Below the pieces are notes generated by a model that worked only from the letters and a program-made list of their open reading frames with translations, searched no databases and was not told the origin of the DNA. A DNA stretch of 32,000 nucleotides, taken from positions 11,592 through 43,591 of the forward strand of contig SUPR01000017.1 of assembly GCA_005191425.1 (NCBI GenBank), written 5' to 3'. Shown one piece after another: positions 5,975-13,743 of this stretch (position 1 is the first letter of the stretch; every line of letters starts with the position of its first letter). Origin of the DNA: Candidatus Helarchaeota ASGARD archaeon Hel_GB_B (GTDB lineage: Archaea; Asgardarchaeota; Lokiarchaeia; Helarchaeales; HEL-GB-B). The translations under genes were made by a program, and so were the position numbers.

Positions 5975-6005
5975 TTTTTCATAAAAATCAAATTCTATTT
6001 TTTTA
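5975..6005 (+). terminator. T-rich tract after pgk, possible archaeal terminator
   Basis: TTTTTC directly after the stop and a T run at 5998-6004; weak evidence in an AT-rich genome. Confidence 0.3.
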
Positions 6006-6123
6006 ATAAATTAATACACCATTTTTTAGGTATATTAGCCATTTGATGAAATAAGTTCATATCTACATTTTTTAAATTTATTAGACTTTTAATATATTAC
6101 TTCTATTCCTTCATTTTTATATG

Positions 6124-7200
6124 CTATAATGCTCTTAATTTAATTATTTTCTTACGTAATATCTTATAATTAAAGTATGCTAAACATTGCATTGCTATTA
6201 ATATAAATAGACTATGTTTATGAGCTTATCTTTTATATTTCAATGATAGTCTCCTATCTATATCACCCAATAATGCATAGAAGCCATTCATCATCCCAAA
6301 CAATCCTTCAATTACCTTTCTACCTCTATATTCTATGATAAATGTATCAATTCCAACATCCTCAAATACCCTTAGATAATTTAATACCAGTTTCGAAATT
6401 TCACTTTTATTTTTTTTTCCAATTTATTTAAAGTAATGTCAATATCTTCTAAGGATCAATATTAGCACATCTTTGCTAATTTTGGAAATTTCAACCCTAA
6501 TTTTATTATCTTAAGATAATACTGCTTGAAATATTCCAACATCTTCTTTTATTCTTTTAATATGTCCGAATTCATTAGATCAATATCAACAACAAGGATT
6601 ACTCGTATTCTTTTTTCAATGAACTCCAATATCTCTAAAGAACAACATTCGGCATCTAATTTAACATGTCCTATTTTTAATTCATATTTACCAGCTTTTT
6701 TTTAAGTAAAATTAATTTATCTTTTAATGTAATAAATCCAGATCTTTCGTTCTTGCTCCCTTTACGAGAGATTATAATAAGAGGAATACAATTTGGGTCA
6801 ACTAGTACCTGAAATTTTAAGACTCGAGTACTTTTATTATCTCTATCATGATATTTTACGCCATCTTAGTCATCTTTTCTCGTTTTACAGAAAGTAGAAT
6901 CTTCGATTATCGTTTCAACATTGATAATTCCCTCTTTTATTAAAATATCCACATTATTCTCTAATATTTTCATTAAAAATATCAATGTTAAACTTTCAAT
7001 ACGCCTTATATAATTTATCAATTCTAGGGACTCTTGAAAAAACCCGAGAGAGTGTCCCATAACTTGTAATATCTCATTATCAATGATAACACTCTCATTT
7101 ATAATTAATTTTAAGTAGAGTATTGATGATAACATTTTTGATTTTATGAAAACAAAAGTTTTGTATATTAAATCTGTTGAATAGCCGTTTTTTCAATTTA
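6124..7200 (-). pseudogene. Degraded DDE transposase (IS4 superfamily: IS5/IS1182/ISH3-like)
   Basis: Pieces read by hand: IIEDSTFCKTRKDD* (first Asp), VKLDAECCSLEILEFI (second Asp), EYRGRKVIEGLFG (Y-x2-R-x3-E signature with catalytic Glu), then HSLFILIAMQCLAY. Several stops and frameshifts. The 5' boundary is approximate and no terminal IRs were identified. Confidence 0.7.
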
Positions 7201-7893
7201 ATATCCCTTTTATAAAATATTTCGTGAAACAAATTCCTTCTCTGAAACATTTAAATCTGCCCTATGGTCTGAACTCTTAGATAATTATAAGAAAATATTT
7301 ATACATTATTCTAAATATAATTTATGATACCGTTTTTTTTATCTTCTATGCAAATTTCTTGATTTTTTCTTATATTTGTCAAATATAAAACTTCTATTGC
7401 CTCATTCTGAATATGAAATATTAATATGTTCAAAAAATAATTATTAAAAATTAAAAAGCATTTGATTCCTATCATTTAAGAGTACACACTCAAGCTGTAT
7501 TGTAGTTAATCGAAATGCAGCCCCTAAAAACATTAATAATAGTCGTACTATTATTTTAATACGTCAATTATGGCAATTTATCTCTTTTTTTATTAATTCA
7601 GTCAAATTAAGAATTTTTTCTAAAAATTCTTTAATAGCAGATATCCAATATCTTTTCCACAATTCGGGCAAATATCCAATACAATCTTGCTGAATAACAG
7701 AACAACCTTCAACTAGGATATCAATTCTCACATAAACACTATTTTACATAAATAATATAATTATTAACTTAATTATAGATATATGTCTATCATAATATTG
7801 ACTAACTTTGGAATAAGAAATAGTATATAAATTTAAATTACATTGAAATCTTTAAAATAAGCCCACTAGAAAACTTGATAGATATAATAAATA

Positions 7894-7935
7894 ACCGACA
7901 AACTTAAATAAAAAGAATTATACAATTTTGTCGGT
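7894..7935. promoter_or_regulatory. 9-bp inverted repeat flanking a TATA-like box upstream of the methyltransferase
   Basis: ACCGACAAA (7894-7902) and TTTGTCGGT (7927-7935) with a 24-nt spacer starting CTTAAATA. Confidence 0.4.
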
Positions 7936-8056
7936 AGAAAATAAAGAAGAAACTTATTTTATCAAAATCCTATAATTTTATTAAATTTTTCTACATCTAA
8001 TAATTAGATATAAATGAAAGATAATAATTAATATTATTATTAATAGATAGATAAAA

Positions 8057-9034
8057 ATGACAAGAACTGATTTAAAGAAACCAACTCAGAAGAAAAGTAG
8101 AAATTACAAAGCAGGACTAGCACAATTAAATTTTAAAATCGAATTCGATTGGAGTCATGAAGAAGCAAGGAAATTATATGAAACATCTATTCATAAAATT
8201 GAAAAAAATACAATATTATATCAAGATTGCATATCGGGTATGAAAAATCTACCTGAAGAATCTGTCGATTTAATTATAGCAGATCCTCCTTTTGGAATAA
8301 ACTTCTCAGGAAAAGGTAGTCAATATAATCGAAATTCAATTTTAGTAGAAGATGGTTATGTAGAAATAAAAGAAGACTATGATAAATTTACCGAAAAATG
8401 GATTCAATGCCTTCCAAGAATAATGAAAAAAACAGCTTCGGCATATATTTTTTCGGGCTGGACAAATTTAAATGATCTTTTAAACGCTATTAATAAAACA
8501 GATTTAAAACTTGTTAATCATATTATCTGGAAATATCAATTTGGTGTGTTTACTAAAAGAAAATTTGTCTCTTCTCATTATCACATTTTATTTCTTGTAA
8601 AAAACGAAAAAAAATATTTTTTTAATAAATACGAATATTATCCAGAAGATGTATGGATTATTCCTAGGAGATACCTACCAGGTCAAAGAAAAAATGGTAC
8701 AAAATTACCTGAAGATGTTGTTAATAAGTGTATCAATTTTTCTTCAAAACCAGGTGATTTGATATTTGATCCATTTATGGGAAATGCTACAACTGCAATT
8801 TGCGCAAAAGGATTATATAGACATTATTATGGATTTGAAATAAATCAAACAATGAAGGAAATTCACCAAAATTACATTAATAATATCAAAGTAGGACAGT
8901 TTTTTAGACCACTCAAAGAATATTTACCATCTAAAGAAGAGTTATTAAAAAAATATCCTCATTTAAAGAAATATGTTAATGAGATAAAAAAATACTCTGG
9001 TAAAAAGACAAGATTAGATCGTTATTTCGAATAA
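8057..9034 (+). CDS. Amino (N6-adenine or N4-cytosine) DNA methyltransferase, beta class
   Basis: YQDCISGM (motif III region), DLIIADPPF (catalytic motif IV, 8282-8293) before DLIFDPFMGNATT (AdoMet-binding motif I), which is beta order; IIWKY and S-S-H-x-x-ILF are typical of the N6_N4 MTase family. DPP(Y/F) leans towards m6A. Confidence 0.92.
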   Translation: MTRTDLKKPTQKKSRNYKAGLAQLNFKIEFDWSHEEARKLYETSIHKIEKNTILYQDCISGMKNLPEESVDLIIADPPFGINFSGKGSQYNRNSILVEDGYVEIKEDYDKFTEKWIQCLPRIMKKTASAYIFSGWTNLNDLLNAINKTDLKLVNHIIWKYQFGVFTKRKFVSSHYHILFLVKNEKKYFFNKYEYYPEDVWIIPRRYLPGQRKNGTKLPEDVVNKCINFSSKPGDLIFDPFMGNATTAICAKGLYRHYYGFEINQTMKEIHQNYINNIKVGQFFRPLKEYLPSKEELLKKYPHLKKYVNEIKKYSGKKTRLDRYFE

Positions 9035-9052
9035 TAAAAGAGTCTGATTATT

Positions 9053-10246
9053 ATGGATGATGTTAAACTTATTGAGGTTATTGCTGAAATTGGTTCAAAA
9101 AATAAGTCTGAACCCTATATTAAGGATGTTGAGATTTTTAGACATTTTTTTGACAAAGATTTTAATTTAATTACTAATGAATTAAACAGCCTAGATGGTA
9201 ATTGTACAAGGAGGGAACTTATAACAAGATTTTTACTGTTAAACGCGGTGCTTGATCAAGGACCTGATACTGAAGGTGTTAGACAACTTCTTTGTGATAC
9301 AATAAATTATTTATATAGGCATGAAATTCGCATATTACATACACCATTAGATTTTTTTAAAGAACTTGGAATTATAATAACAGAAATCGATAATGTACAC
9401 GACATCGTTAAAAAACTAAGAGCAAAAAAATGGGCTAGAAATAACAATAGTACGGCTTTAAAATATAATTTATTTATGGATAATACAACCCAAACATTGA
9501 ATTATGCTGTATTTCGCTGGGGAGTTCCATTATCTGTTCCATTGATTTTAGAAAATGATTATAAAAGTAAGGATGATGATATAAATCCTGAACTTTTATT
9601 AGATTATTTAGAAGATGATAATGATGCCGAATGGCCCTCATCAGCAGAGATAATGTCAAAAAAAATCAAACAACACAAGCGTTATGGCTTAGGTAAGGCA
9701 ATTGGGGATAAAGCTGCCCATTTATTCGCAAAATGGATAGTACATACTTTTAATTTAACTCGTAAGAGAGATATAACTTGGGGAAAATATTCGTTTGAAG
9801 TTCCTTTCGATAGCAATGCAGGAAGAGTTCTCTTTAGAACGGGATATTTACTTAATTGGGCTGATATTGATGATTATAAGAAATCTAATGTAATACAGCC
9901 AAACCAAGGAAAAGGAGGAACAGATTATATACGAGTAACTAATATCAGGGGGATGAAAGCAACTAAAAACATTTCGACCATTGATCCTAATATCTATCGA
10001 GATCTTTGTGTTAAATATCTTTTAACGCATAGAAGAGCCCCTAAAAAATACGAGATTCAAAAAATACCAATTGCACAATTATTAAAAGAGAAAAAATATG
10101 GACCTGGGGATTTAGATGATGGATTAATGTATATTGGTACACATTTTTGTTTTAATATTGAAAATCCAAATTGTGATGATTGCCCAATTAATTCATATTG
10201 TAGTGGATTTAATGAAAATATATTAATTACTAAATATAGGACATGA
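9053..10246 (+). CDS. Enlarged HhH-GPD superfamily DNA glycosylase-like protein with C-terminal [4Fe-4S] motif
   Basis: LLNAVLDQ (N-terminal helix typical of HhH-GPD), KAIGDKAAHL (helix-hairpin-helix with Lys), VPFDSNAGRVLFRTG (catalytic Asp motif), and C-x7-C-x2-C-x5-C (CFNIENPNCDDCPINSYC; the EndoIII/MutY consensus is C-x6-C-x2-C-x5-C). Starts 18 nt after the MTase stop. Confidence 0.75.
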   Translation: MDDVKLIEVIAEIGSKNKSEPYIKDVEIFRHFFDKDFNLITNELNSLDGNCTRRELITRFLLLNAVLDQGPDTEGVRQLLCDTINYLYRHEIRILHTPLDFFKELGIIITEIDNVHDIVKKLRAKKWARNNNSTALKYNLFMDNTTQTLNYAVFRWGVPLSVPLILENDYKSKDDDINPELLLDYLEDDNDAEWPSSAEIMSKKIKQHKRYGLGKAIGDKAAHLFAKWIVHTFNLTRKRDITWGKYSFEVPFDSNAGRVLFRTGYLLNWADIDDYKKSNVIQPNQGKGGTDYIRVTNIRGMKATKNISTIDPNIYRDLCVKYLLTHRRAPKKYEIQKIPIAQLLKEKKYGPGDLDDGLMYIGTHFCFNIENPNCDDCPINSYCSGFNENILITKYRT

Positions 10247-10358
10247 TTTAATCATTAAGTTGAATTGAAAATTTTATTAGGGGTTATATGTTAATAAAAA
10301 GAATTTTTGGAATTCAGAACTAATTTTAATTATTTCTTCGTTTATTTCTTTTGATGTT

Positions 10359-10976
10359 TTAATACATACTATTAATATATTCGTATTATAAATGTTATTT
10401 AAAAAATCTTCAACTTGTAATTTTACAGTAGTTCTTTCTGGTAAAGACTATACATCATCGTGATAGGAATGGTGGTACACATAACTTAATAATTCTTTAA
10501 ATAATTTTTCTAATTTTCTTTTATTTAGAAGTGAAGAATTTTTTATTTTATTGAAAAATCTAGAACCTAAATCCTTTATGTCGCTTAAATTTTTGCAAAC
10601 TTCAAGTTTAGATTTAATACTTAGTATTGAAATGCTTTGTGTTAATATAAGATGCTTAACACATGCTATTAATTATTAATCATAATTCCCGAAACACAGA
10701 TTGATAAGAACCGAATAAAATGCAAATTTTAATCCAATCAAAAATTTTTATATATTCAGTTAATCTTATGGATATCATTAAATCATTTTTTCTATCCTTT
10801 AGTTCGGGTCTTAGGAAATCAATGTGCTCCAAGATTCTCAAAGGAATAACATTCAGTTCTGCGATTTTTTCTTGTTGTTGAATTAAAGGTTCTCCAAATT
10901 TTTCAGCATAGGGATCAATTACATTGATAATTTCATCTAAAAATCTTTCATCTATATTTTTTATGTTTAGTTCCTC
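10359..10976 (-). pseudogene. Decayed gene for a helical hypothetical protein
   Basis: Long protein-like frames broken by stops and a frameshift: EELNIKNIDERFLDEII...ICILFGSYQSVFREL*LIINSMC* then LSIKSKLEVCKNL...LFKELLSYVYHHSYHDDV*SLPERTTV...; no start codon found. Confidence 0.45.
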
Positions 10977-11336
10977 TTAAAATTAATTTATAATGATTTT
11001 GAAGAATTTCATCTCATTTTTTTTAATAGTTATTTGATTTGTAAATACCAATAAATTTTTTACCAATTTTTGTATATTAAATTACTAGTCCAATTTATAA
11101 TTTGAGAATTTTTCATTTTTTTGGACAATTAAAAAATTTTTCCAACCACCCGCCTTTTTTATGAGATGATATTCAATACTTTTTGGTTCTAAAAGATCTT
11201 CTGAAAATATTTTTTATGTGTAGATACCATTTTCATAAGTTGTAATTTTTCCTATTTTTAACATCTTTTTCCTCATTTTCTTTTTATGTTTTTATTTTAT
11301 GAGTCTATCTATCATTAATTTAAATGAAAAAGATCA

Positions 11337-11550
11337 TTATAGAAAAAAAATGATATCTAAGTATTCAAAATCATCGCGATTTATTATTATGTCTTTAAAT
11401 AACATTTCATAATCCAATGAGATAGGTTTAAGAATCGCATTATTACTTGGATCCGTCTTCATTATCCTACTTTCCCAGTGTAATATGGCGGGATCTTCTT
11501 TAATTTCTCCTTCTTCTGGTATTATCTCACCTTTTACTTTACATTTTTTT
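11337..11550 (-). pseudogene. Gene fragment, unknown family
   Basis: Open frame without a start: KNVKVKGEIIPEEGEIKEDPAILHWESRIMKTDPSNNAILKPISLDYEMLFKDIIINRDDFEYLDIIFFL*. Confidence 0.3.
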
Positions 11551-11936
11551 AAGTTTTTAGACCAATATTATTACAGATTTAATCCTTGTTTTCATAACAT
11601 TAATCATATCTTTTTTAAAACTATTTGATTCAAAAATTTTTTCAAACAGATAGGATCTTGGTAAATTGAAAAAATTCGTTGGAGAATATTCTATTTTTAT
11701 ATATCCTTTTTAATTATCTTGTCGTACAAAGCAATCCCTCATGAAATCATTAAAGAAATGATTGCAATTAAATCTGACATTAAATTACCCAAAAAGATAT
11801 GTGGATTTGACAAATTTAGTAAAATGAGAGTCAAAAAAGTAAGAATTATTGAAATAAGAAAAATTGGTGTGAAAATAATCAAAAATATCTTTTTTATTTA
11901 AATTAATTACCTTTTTAATTCAATAAATATATAGAT

Positions 11937-12320
11937 TTACACATCTTCAGATAATTCTTCATTTCTTAAGATCGTATCTTTTATTGAATCATTTGCAAGT
12001 GTTAGAATTGTTTTATAGAATTCATAAGCTGGAGTTCTCGGTGTAATATTCTCTAAAACTTTTTTTGATTCATCACGAAGATATTCATCTTGAGGCAATA
12101 TTTGACCTACGATTCCGGATTTCGTCATATTTCTAATAATATTTAATAAACTATTTTTAATCTCTTCATAACATTTAAAGTCAATGGAATATGCTTTACT
12201 TAATAATTTTGATATGAAATCTGTTTTAGAAAAAATTAGTTGAGGTGGTGCGTTATGAAGTAATAAACCGATACAACTTAATTTTTGCAAATCATCTGAA
12301 TCAATCCACTCATTGTCCAT
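11937..12320 (-). pseudogene. Probable C-terminal fragment of a larger protein, abutting the IS110 3' end
   Basis: 127-aa helical ORF starting 12 nt after the IS110 transposase stop, with no room for its own promoter; a neighbouring frame reads KEENIELILRW just upstream, suggesting a frameshifted continuation. Confidence 0.4.
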
Positions 12321-12332
12321 CTTAAAATTAAT

Positions 12333-13505
12333 TCAATATTCTCTTCTTTTTAACATATACCAAATTATTGTTAGTAATTTTCTCGCACCTGCACATATTG
12401 CTTTCCAATAATTATCGGTTCACTCTTTTATCTTCAACACATATCTTTTTATTGGATTTTTTTCCTTTTGCATATATGTTCTTACATATTAAAACAACTG
12501 CTCTTCTTAGATATTTATTTCCACCCTTCTGAATTTTTCCTGTTATATGTTTTTTATGCCAGGACTGATAGACCTTTAGTGCAAGTCCAGCCCATTTGAC
12601 CAATTTTCTTGGACTCTGAAAATATGTGATGTCTGTTATTTCAGCCATAATAACCACGGATATATTTGGTTCCACTCTAAGAATTGTTAATAGAAGCTCT
12701 ATTTGCTTTTTGAATTGTTTATTATTCTTTGCTATTACATAATAAGTTGATTCTTGCTTTTTCTCTATTATACTTAAAAATTAGAGCTGTATTGTATCAT
12801 TTTAAAAAGTTACAGATTCGATTTCATCGAACTTATCTTGAAAATTTTTAAATTCCTTTATTTGAGTTTCGTCCTTTACTAAGTATGAATAGTTTCCTTT
12901 AATAACACTTAAACTTTTATCATCAACCGCCCTTATTGATGCTAAACTTAATAATTCCAAGCCTTGCTTGGAATTCAACAATTTCTTATATTTAAAATCT
13001 TTTTGGTGGAATATTTGGTTTACCCTCTGTTTTATCTTTGTTTTTTCATTTATAATTTTGTACCTATACCTAACTGCTTTCCTTAAATTGAATAATTCAA
13101 CAAGAGGGATTAACGATGGCTTCAATCTACTATCTCTATGCGCCACGGCGATCCTCCTTGCATCAAATTTGTTAGTTTTTTTACCCTGTGTTGTTTTTGT
13201 CTGTTGCGGATTTGCTACTAATATGTCAATCCCATTATTTACCATTTCAAATACTAGTTTGAAATGATATTGTGCTGTTGATTCCACAGCAACACTTATC
13301 ACCTTATATCTTCTTATTATTTTAATTAAACGATTAATTCCAACATAGTTATTTAACAATTCATCTTTTCTTTTAATATTTTATCTTCGTCCACTATGCA
13401 ATATGCCATTATATCCCTATGCACGTCAATACCCATTACCGCTCCTTTTTTTCTTTTTCCTTCACCCTCTTCCAATTCCAAAAAATTTTTATTTTTGTTT
13501 CTCAT
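12333..13505 (-). pseudogene. IS110-family transposase/recombinase pseudogene
   Basis: ATG 13505 gives MRNK...VMGIDVHRD (DEDD D1), then VAVESTAQYH (E), NPQQTK..GKKTNKFDARRIA (D-x-x-D with D to N), IMAEITDITYFQSPRKLVKWAGL..VYQS..ITGKIQKGGNKYLRRA (Tnp domain), and KAICAGARKLLTIIWYMLK, TGA at 12335-12333. Several stops and frameshifts. Confidence 0.9.
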
Positions 13506-13507
13506 GA

Positions 13508-13714
13508 TTTATCACATCTTTTATTTGAAAATATGATGGGCTGCAAAACTTGGCATGGACGCCAATTTATATTAGGAGCTCTAAGCTCAATCGGACGATC
13601 CGGCTGCCAAGTTTTCATAGTTTATTTTAGAGGATATAGGCCAGCAGAAGCCCATTCCTAAATAAATTTCATGATAATTGCAGCCCATCACCTTTAATTT
13701 AAATTTGTGATAAA
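13508..13714 (-). ncRNA. Candidate IS110 bridge/seek-type structured RNA
   Basis: Nested inverted repeats: 13508-13516/13706-13714 (9 bp), 13534-13546/13678-13690 (13 bp perfect), 13545-13555/13605-13615 (11 bp), small hairpins at 13576-13588 and 13592-13602, and a long hairpin at 13621-13666. GC-rich compared with its flanks. Confidence 0.5.
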
Positions 13715-13743
13715 AAAAGATTTCTATTGGAAATGAATTTTTC

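Follow-up and report, generated by a model that had tools for sequence, protein, structure and literature searches.

A candidate restriction-modification cassette of an Asgard archaeon pairs an amino-methyltransferase with an enlarged HhH-GPD glycosylase-fold protein

Among the enzymes with which the gene pair studied here may be compared, Mig, as well as Vsr, accompanies 5-methylcytosine (m5C) methyltransferases (MTases) and repairs the T:G mismatches that arise by deamination of 5-methylcytosine. Mig is monofunctional and has a tyrosine at the position of the lysine that, together with an aspartate, is the signature of bifunctional glycosylase/apurinic-apyrimidinic (AP)-lyases, and the bifunctional Fe-S HhH-GPD enzymes ROS1 and DEMETER (DME) are able to excise undamaged bases. 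Restriction by base excision is known for the PabI family, which a 2023 review regards as the only one of its kind so far known, all restriction enzymes outside the PabI (HALFPIPE) superfamily being phosphodiesterases (PMC10273834). Here we analyzed a stretch of 32,000 nucleotides (the window) from the Candidatus Helarchaeota archaeon Hel_GB_B (contig SUPR01000017.1, positions 11,592 to 43,591), in which an amino-MTase gene (8057-9034) is followed by a gene (9053-10246) for a 397-amino-acid protein. The original prediction, made from the sequence alone, had described two intact open reading frames (ORFs) of the same strand that are 18 nt apart, as was confirmed at these coordinates, and had offered three functions for the second protein: a restriction glycosylase blocked by methylation, an eraser of the methyl mark, or a repair enzyme for deaminated methyl-bases. 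We favor the first of these with a probability of about 0.6, namely that the cassette is a restriction-modification (R-M) pair with a methylation-blocked restriction glycosylase/AP-lyase, which would add to PabI another fold with this activity. We do so because of the one-way dependence on an MTase, the equivalence to a restriction endonuclease slot, the mobility and the variable gene orders of the cassette, the defense-island-like setting of a close relative, the conservation of Lys, Asp and Fe-S ligands, and the avoidance of a candidate target site. No paper in which an amino-MTase has an HhH-GPD protein as its R-M partner came up in a literature search, a result with incomplete coverage and therefore no proof of absence.

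The first gene of the pair (8057-9034, plus strand) encodes a beta-class N6-adenine/N4-cytosine DNA MTase of 325 amino acids from an Asgard-rich subfamily, which matched PF01555 (N6_N4_Mtase) of Pfam with an E-value of 1.4e-33 and MTase_II of PADLOC with 8.6e-60, and for which CcrM (6pbd, 1e-26) is the nearest solved structure. Motif IV (DPPF, residues 76-79, 8282-8293, plus strand), the catalytic loop, precedes motif I (DPFMGNATT, residues 238-246, 8768-8794, plus strand), the S-adenosylmethionine-binding site, and this motif order together with the PF01555 match bears out the assignment to the beta class in the original prediction. The Asp form of motif IV is typical of N6-methyladenine (m6A) enzymes and, judged from motif IV, the window MTase would be of m6A type. 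Its closest homologues are from Helarchaeota (78% identical), Sigynarchaeota and Lokiarchaeum ossiferum, and MTases of the window subfamily are present in 18 of 101 related genomes, the host included. The host genome encodes a further member of this subfamily on another contig (G000:C128:15365-16276, minus strand), which is 64% identical to the window MTase and has neither a glycosylase gene nor the accessory ORF3 described below in its vicinity. Since 13 of 23 related genera, the host genus among them, have an orthologue of the C128 enzyme, it seems to be an orphan MTase that has persisted in this archaeal lineage.

The second gene (9053-10246, plus strand) encodes the 397-amino-acid protein which, according to a predicted model, is an enlarged HhH-GPD/[4Fe-4S] glycosylase-fold protein and our candidate restriction glycosylase/AP-lyase (for brevity called the glycosylase). 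No family of Pfam, NCBIfam or PADLOC matched this protein above threshold, no HhH-GPD match (PF00730) was obtained even at E ≤ 1, and there was no match to the Nth models of NCBIfam, which are about 210 amino acids long; sub-threshold matches were confined to its last ~90 residues and to the iron-sulfur loop of MutY/EndoIII. Similarly, hhalign of the 397-amino-acid protein with the PF00730 protein that the host encodes in a separate, canonical HhH-GPD gene (L082) aligned 31 columns, in the Fe-S loop only, and in all comparisons by HMMER and hhalign (Pfam, NCBIfam, phmmer/hmmsearch against the PDB, hhalign) this loop was the sole part that aligned to MutY/EndoIII. An identity as MutY was rejected, as the TIGR01084 score of 29.5 bits fell short of the cut-off (286.5) and covered residues 300-389 only, no Glu is found 4-5 residues before Q69 (NAVLDQ), and the model has no extra C-terminal (NUDIX-like) domain. 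At E ≤ 0.001 at least 670 homologues were detected, every one of them named 'hypothetical', the closest being from Asgard archaea of the Lokiarchaeia.

An AlphaFold (AF2) model, built from alignment A1 of 46 homologues, had a mean predicted local distance difference test score (pLDDT) of 95 and a predicted template modeling score of 0.93. When this model was compared exhaustively with about 48,000 PDB representatives using VIA-align, all 23 matches with Z ≥ 5 were HhH-GPD proteins, the next matches lying below Z 5. The top match was the queuine-salvage protein DUF2419 (Z 13.1), followed by EndoIII of D. radiodurans (Z 12.8), Mig (1kea, Z 12.2), EndoIII of E. coli (2abk, Z 12.1; root-mean-square deviation of 2.9 Å over 206 of 211 residues), MutY (Z 11.8) and ROS1 (7yho, Z 11.5); NTHL1 was likewise among the HhH-GPD matches. 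Foldseek searches of PDB and Swiss-Prot as well as the ESM Atlas indicated the same families with weaker statistics. By its model, the 397-amino-acid protein is a member of the HhH-GPD superfamily in the branch with an Fe-S cluster loop, having a two-lobed, all-helical fold with a helix-hairpin-helix, and in the structure prediction, proposed earlier as a check, the whole protein models with this fold. Two of the matches bear on other explanations. Most members of the fold family are repair enzymes, and Mig, among the best matches, is a companion of an MTase in nature, as would suit a methylation-linked repair enzyme. The DUF2419 match, on the other hand, illustrates that the HhH-GPD scaffold has been reused for other chemistry, and the protein might be a non-catalytic DNA-binding partner, that is, an MTase subunit for specificity, targeting or regulation that has kept no more than the glycosylase scaffold.

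The pattern of conserved residues makes such a non-catalytic role most improbable. The helix-hairpin-helix YGLGKAIGDKAAHLFAKW (residues 211-228, 9683-9736, plus strand; alignment and model) contains the GDKAA motif, its AIGDKAA being comparable to GVGRKTA in EndoIII, and its invariant K220 (9710-9712) opens the second of two modeled helices (198-207 and 219-232). The Asp motif EVPFDSNAGRV (residues 249-259, 9797-9829, plus strand; alignment and model) contains the invariant D253 (9809-9811), which caps the modeled helix 254-262 and is located 33 residues beyond K220, the corresponding distance in EndoIII being 18. Close to the C-terminus, the alignment predicts an iron-sulfur cluster loop C366-x7-C374-x2-C377-x5-C383 (10148-10201, plus strand) that fits the pattern C-x6-7-C-x2-C-x5-C and aligns with the loop of MutY/ROS1, and close to the N-terminus DQGPD (residues 68-72, 9254-9268, plus strand; alignment) includes the invariant Q69 and G70, of which Q69, judged from the motif, would correspond to the Gln of 'LSAQATD' in helix B of EndoIII. 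Among the 46 homologues of alignment A1, DQGPD, G212/G214/G218, K220, D253 (within E-x-P-x-D-S-N-x-G-R) and C366/C374/C377/C383 are invariant, so that the motifs GDKAA, PFDSNAGRV and the four cysteines, pointed out in the original prediction, are all present and conserved beyond chance. An exhaustive profile search added distant subfamilies of 21-28% identity (145 cluster representatives), and 14 positions remained invariant when these were included (Q69, G70, G75, Y138, G212, G218, K220, K227, P251, D253, G264, C366, C377 and C383). We consider K220 a candidate Schiff-base lysine at the position of K120 in EndoIII and D253 a candidate catalytic Asp at the position of D138. HMMER places the catalytic 'VDGNVMRV' of MutY not on D253 but on residues 310-318 (IDPNIYRDL); of the two, D253 is conserved in the family and the segment 310-318 is not. 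A non-catalytic helper would hardly be expected to keep precisely the catalytic Lys, Asp and Gln across subfamilies that are 21% identical, and three unrelated MTase classes (see below) would have to share the need for one helper; in favor of a helper, the partner MTases are complete enzymes that also function without a glycosylase.

In order to survey the loci across genomes, one genome per GTDB species was taken, which gave 80 glycosylase loci, and MTases were located in them by iterated hidden Markov model searches of all ORFs. An MTase of PF01555 abuts the glycosylase gene in 79 of 80 loci, and in the only exception the glycosylase gene lies 122 nt from a contig end. In 72 loci the MTase gene is situated directly upstream on the same strand, usually with a gap of less than 70 nt or with an overlap, and in the remaining loci it is downstream or convergent; a divergent order is found in L117, the closest relative of the window cassette. 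The presence of tandem, convergent and divergent orders supports an R-M-like mobile cassette. No other neighbor is common to more than 7 of the 80 loci, the flanks being unrelated housekeeping genes. Even the genes for distant glycosylase subfamilies of 415 amino acids (21-28% identical; L115:406-1653 and L116:3501-4748) adjoin PF01555 MTases. The hosts include bacteria as well as archaea and represent more than 20 phyla (Chloroflexota, Ignavibacteria, Elusimicrobia, WOR-3, TA06, Nitrospirota, Planctomycetota, Acidobacteriota, Proteobacteria, Bacillota, Thermoplasmata, Aenigmarchaeota, Altiarchaeales and others). Among 101 related genomes, the host included, only 2 encode the glycosylase, and it is absent from G001, a genome of the same genus. 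The distribution is patchy and the cassette is horizontally mobile. Premature in-frame stops interrupt two glycosylase copies (L015:3323-4504 and L024:6001-7122), each beside an intact MTase gene, and the reverse case of a broken MTase next to an intact glycosylase was found in none of the loci. The association is obligatory and one-way, as MTases also occur without the glycosylase, and the prediction thereby survived its own test for refutation, according to which homologues would mostly occur without an MTase.

Tight linkage of this kind would also suit a Vsr/Mig-like methylation-linked repair enzyme, which would be non-toxic, remove a lesion at the MTase site, such as a base that is deaminated, mis-methylated or mispaired, and keep that site intact. 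A harmless gene, however, would be expected to be solitary at times, and the glycosylase gene never is. The nature of the partners also speaks against such a repair enzyme, as all 79 are PF01555 amino-MTases with SPPY or DPP[FY] in motif IV, in contrast to the m5C MTases that are the partners of Vsr and Mig. By motif IV and sequence, the adjacent MTases form three classes, designated SPPY, DPPF and DPPY. The SPPY class (TSPPYWNAI and relatives; 42 loci) is N4-methylcytosine (m4C)-like, with 2zie and N4-cytosine MTases as nearest PDB entries, the DPPF class (27 loci plus the window) is m6A-like and has CcrM as nearest structure, and the DPPYGI class comprises 5 loci; within the DPPF class, the MTases of the window, L117 and L118 form a subgroup (IADPPFGI; 56-62% identical). 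MTases of different classes share only about 25% identity, whereas the glycosylases are about 50% and up to 83% identical (L011 vs L018). On the tree of the glycosylases, at least 6 changes of the SPP/DPP label are needed, 5 of which are forced by well-supported branches. Within a class, MTase and glycosylase co-diverge (Mantel r 0.67 and 0.49), indicating that the two proteins mostly travel together. This bears on the congruence of the two trees, suggested earlier as a check; across classes, partners have been swapped at least 6 times.

Partners of both m4C type (SPPY) and m6A type (DPPF/DPPY) are a poor fit to the third of the functions offered originally, the repair of deaminated methyl-bases, because the products of deamination would differ (U and hypoxanthine) and both are handled by general repair. 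They also burden another explanation, a writer/eraser pair in which the glycosylase excises m6A or m4C, in a manner resembling ROS1/DEMETER, so that methylation would be reversible or phase-variable or would mark DNA for cleavage. The combination of Lys, Asp and Fe-S chemistry would be common to ROS1/DME and to the family studied here, but a single pocket would need to take both m6A and m4C, and a constitutive operon of writer and eraser would run a futile cycle that does damage and brings no obvious advantage. For the eraser, offered as the second function, no separate support was obtained.

In 7 of the 80 loci, the operon includes one more conserved ORF, which we call ORF3 and which encodes about 215 amino acids. 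ORF3 has 754 homologues, none of which is annotated, and no match in Pfam, NCBIfam or PADLOC; examples of the family are L002:1648-2301, L066:7122-7871, L070:4212-4910 and L107/L109/L111:4001-4650. Its AlphaFold model (pLDDT 94) matched type II restriction endonucleases (REases) of the PD-(D/E)xK fold, namely SfiI (Z 9.0), SwaI (8.3), BcnI (8.1), NaeI (7.9), EcoRV and BglI (both 7.7), and ORF3 therefore probably represents an uncatalogued REase family. In three contexts that were inspected, ORF3 lies directly upstream of a DPPY-MTase gene in a two-gene unit that lacks the glycosylase, and the MTases of these units share 60-70% identity with the DPPY MTases that accompany the glycosylase in L002, L014, L022, L025 and L038. 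In L022 and L038, the glycosylase holds the exact position usually taken by ORF3. From the shared DPPY MTases and this position it follows that one MTase subfamily can have either ORF3 or the glycosylase, and occasionally both, as its partner, and the glycosylase occupies the R slot of a restriction endonuclease. The same exchange stands against an eraser, since an REase fills this slot in the sister cassettes. One close relative of the window cassette (L118:343-5145) looks like part of a defense island, its neighbors being an SLFN/AlbA_2-STAND NTPase, a PIN protein and an SMC_N/AAA_15 ATPase, and in this locus a divergent ORF3-like gene (33% identical) is inserted between glycosylase and MTase. 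An ORF of 215 amino acids upstream of the MTase gene of Lokiarchaeum ossiferum was considered as an ORF3 homologue and rejected by BLASTP. The co-occurrence of an REase-fold gene in 7 of the 80 loci and in L118 leaves an accessory role possible for the glycosylase, as a repair enzyme would have it, but 73 of the 80 loci are without an REase gene.

The DNA around the 80 loci was also inspected for depleted palindromes, taking observed/expected ratios (O/E) from a maximum-order Markov expectation. AGCT was the most depleted palindromic tetranucleotide, with pooled O/E values of 0.32 in SPPY hosts, 0.39 in DPPF hosts and 0.64 in DPPY hosts; in 62 of 78 assessable loci O/E was below 0.5, and the median was 0.33. 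DNA unlinked to the cassette was studied as 20-kb samples. Among relatives of G101 (Anaerolinea group), three carriers had AGCT O/E values of 0.02-0.09 (4 observed, 121 expected), whereas the pooled value for 17 non-carrier genomes was 0.75. Similarly, among relatives of G105, carriers had O/E values of 0-0.18 and non-carriers a pooled value of 0.56, the latter with a bimodal distribution in which 7 of 16 were at or below 0.21 and the others at 0.34-0.96. Every carrier tested by unlinked samples was AGCT-poor. For most of the family, the target site is probably AGCT, judging from these sequence statistics. Since an A as well as a C is present in AGCT, protection could come from an m6A enzyme or from an m4C enzyme, which fits the interchangeable partners. 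AGCT-specific m4C MTases have been described and are frequently catalogued as orphans (PMC10609329; PMC6329791).

Side by side with these results stand some palindromes of short contigs: the contigs of the distant subfamilies, L115 and L116, are low in GATC (0 observed vs 6.2 expected and 18 vs 31, numbers too small to judge), and on L111, a Planctomycetota contig of 8.6 kb, several 4-bp palindromes are wholly absent (GGCC 0/70, GATC 0/29, AGCT 0/13, GTAC 0/9), an extreme case of palindrome avoidance.

The near elimination of AGCT from carriers is the opposite of what a Vsr/Mig-like enzyme, which preserves its site, would be expected to bring about, and together with the solitary-gene argument and the mixed partners it leads us to regard such a repair function as unlikely. 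An eraser could account for the loss of the site, because chronic excision at methylated positions would be mutagenic and could purge it; the host of the window, however, has 8488 AGCT sites, with which it could hardly survive next to an intact pair if AGCT were the site, and on balance we consider the eraser very unlikely. The restriction glycosylase, offered as the first function, was the best supported of the three by linkage, R slot, mobility, nonsense copies and AGCT avoidance.

A number of observations have to be set against the restriction-glycosylase interpretation. Regarding the site, 7 of the 16 non-carrier relatives of G105 are AGCT-poor as well (L152, L155-L159 and L165; O/E 0-0.21), a finding that earlier carriage, a different AGCT system or the incompleteness of the bins might explain. 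The window host itself is not depleted in AGCT, with 8488 sites observed vs 8379 expected genome-wide (O/E 1.01), as is the case in the glycosylase-free G001 of the same genus (O/E 0.98), and AGCT was therefore rejected as the site of the window host. Its closest relatives are not AGCT-poor either (12 observed vs 14.5 expected for L117, the glycosylase of which is 71% identical, and 27 vs 26.3 for L118). The AGCT site of the family may hence not apply to the window, or the cassette may be recent or silent; for the window clade, the lack of AGCT avoidance may be due to another specificity, to recent acquisition or to protection by the resident C128 paralogue. Regarding the enzymes, the methylated bases of the partner MTases were assigned by motif IV alone, the E-values of Foldseek were weak (0.09; all ≥ 0.07), and the equivalence of K220 with K120 and of D253 with D138 was derived from motifs and predicted secondary structure rather than from superposition. 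Regarding context, tight MTase linkage is equally expected of a Vsr/Mig-like repair partner or of an eraser, and the glycosylase could be accessory where a classical REase-fold gene is encoded in the same operon, that is, in the 7 GTDB loci and in L118.

Other sites were considered for the window host. GANTC, to which the CcrM-like MTase had drawn attention, was not avoided (0.93). GGNCC (0.61 vs 1.02) and GGGCCC (0.48 vs 1.30) showed a host-specific depletion (host vs G001, L120-L139); no tie of either to the cassette could be established, as L117 and L118 are too short for a comparison, and neither was accepted as its site. GTNAC is depleted in both the host and G001 (0.59 and 0.53).

The absence from the host of any site avoidance attributable to the cassette has to be seen together with the surroundings of the pair. 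The host genome is a metagenome-assembled genome of 3.5 Mb with 27% G+C from marine sediment, and the pair sits within an AT-rich stretch (5975-13743) between pgk on one side and the aconitase gene acnA on the other. Apart from the pair, this stretch holds small ORFs without Pfam match and a broken IS110-family transposase gene (12412-13359, minus strand; fragments 12412-12675 and 12802-13359; PF02371 1.3e-14, PF01548 2.5e-14), which marks the region as a mobile-DNA island. Its left flank after pgk, upstream of the pair (5975-8056, AT-rich), and the stretch downstream of the pair (10247-11936) contain no ORF matching a family, and no remnant of ORF3, the accessory REase family, was found in the downstream stretch or elsewhere in the window. 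As stated in the original prediction, no classical nuclease partner is in view, no ORF of PD-(D/E)xK, HNH or GIY-YIG type having been found in the island 5975-13743. The insertion boundary is not definable against G001, the contigs of which break beside pgk and acnA. The two genes of the pair are separated by a spacer of 18 nt (TAAAAGAGTCTGATTATT, 9035-9052, plus strand), which, with both on the same strand, suggests an operon.

In such a setting, the cassette might be an inert passenger of this genome, irrespective of the function of the family in other hosts, either unexpressed or tolerated because a resident paralogous MTase methylates the site. The decayed DNA of the island with its broken IS110 element and the lack of site avoidance would agree with this, as would the second MTase of the same subfamily, 64% identical, on contig C128. 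Against an inert passenger, both ORFs are intact and retain all family-invariant residues amid decayed surroundings, which suggests that the pair is maintained, as in post-segregational 'addiction', and we consider the passenger explanation doubtful.

For the restriction glycosylase, the following course of events can be proposed. The MTase would mark a short site in the host genome, and the glycosylase, directed by sequence, would remove a normal base wherever this site is unmethylated. D253 would assist in the release of the base, and K220 would form a Schiff base at C1' and drive beta-elimination. Action on both strands of a palindrome would create a double-strand break that cannot be sealed by religation of its ends, and incoming phage or plasmid DNA would be destroyed. 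Either N6-methyladenine or N4-methylcytosine in the site would block the glycosylase. Leaky, mutagenic self-excision might explain the deep loss of AGCT in carriers, with O/E values down to 0.02. The glycosylase/lyase activity, its blocking by methylation, the excised base and the role in defense are what we infer from the data above. For the more far-reaching proposal that these cassettes form an independently evolved second class of restriction glycosylases, derived from base excision repair, distributed over more than 20 phyla, blocked by m6A or m4C and purging AGCT by self-attack, we see about an even chance.

If the proposal holds true, base-excision restriction would have been reached at least twice, now from the endonuclease III/MutY scaffold with its iron-sulfur cluster, and a family of at least 670 'hypothetical' proteins would gain an annotation. 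Many MTases now termed 'orphan' would have to be re-read. A sequence-specific glycosylase for normal bases would be a useful tool and a model for sequence reading by HhH-GPD proteins, and a defense system would be tied to a strong, lineage-specific loss of a tetranucleotide, the composition of host genomes being visibly rewritten. The window provides an Asgard-archaeal example, with an MTase subfamily that is widespread in Asgard, and as AGCT is kept in its host, it is a useful contrast for the study of specificity. The PD-(D/E)xK family of ORF3, sharing MTase partners with the glycosylase, is an added observation of this analysis.

The proposed cassette may be compared with several known systems. 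It resembles the PabI family (R.PabI, R.HpyAXII and R.CcoLI with their m6A MTases) in that a mobile type II R protein would act on a 4-bp palindrome (GTAC in the case of PabI) by excision of an unmethylated base, would have AP-lyase activity and would be blocked by methylation of its partner. It differs in that PabI has the HALFPIPE fold and no Fe-S cluster, whereas the protein described here is modeled as HhH-GPD with a [4Fe-4S] loop and a proposed Lys/Asp chemistry, in the site (GTAC vs AGCT as candidate of the family) and in having m4C-type as well as m6A-type partners. According to the HhH-GPD model, the relation to PabI is one of a proposed similar mode of action and not of membership in the HALFPIPE superfamily. 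With EndoIII and NTHL1 the protein shares a C-terminal loop with four cysteines and, judged from motifs and modeled helices, would share a Lys opening the second helix of the HhH and an Asp capping the next helix; it is, however, about 190 residues larger, has a Lys-Asp spacing of 33 instead of 18 and a first Cys gap of x7 instead of x6, and is linked to an MTase and mobile. Mig.MthI, the T:G mismatch glycosylase of the R-M plasmid pFV1, is likewise an HhH-GPD Fe-S protein encoded beside an MTase, but the partners here are amino-MTases, the Lys is invariant and the site is lost from hosts rather than kept, by which the cassette is also distinguished from Vsr. ROS1 and DEMETER resemble the proposed enzyme in being bifunctional Lys/Asp HhH-GPD Fe-S enzymes with large insertions; in contrast to the protein studied here they are eukaryotic, excise a methylated base, have a discontinuous domain and possess a C-terminal domain that is missing here. 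Finally, with classical type II R-M systems of the PD-(D/E)xK type, those with ORF3 included, the cassette shares architecture, mobility, gene orders and the DPPY MTase subfamily, and differs from them in that its R protein is without a nuclease fold, so that cleavage would proceed by base excision and beta-elimination.

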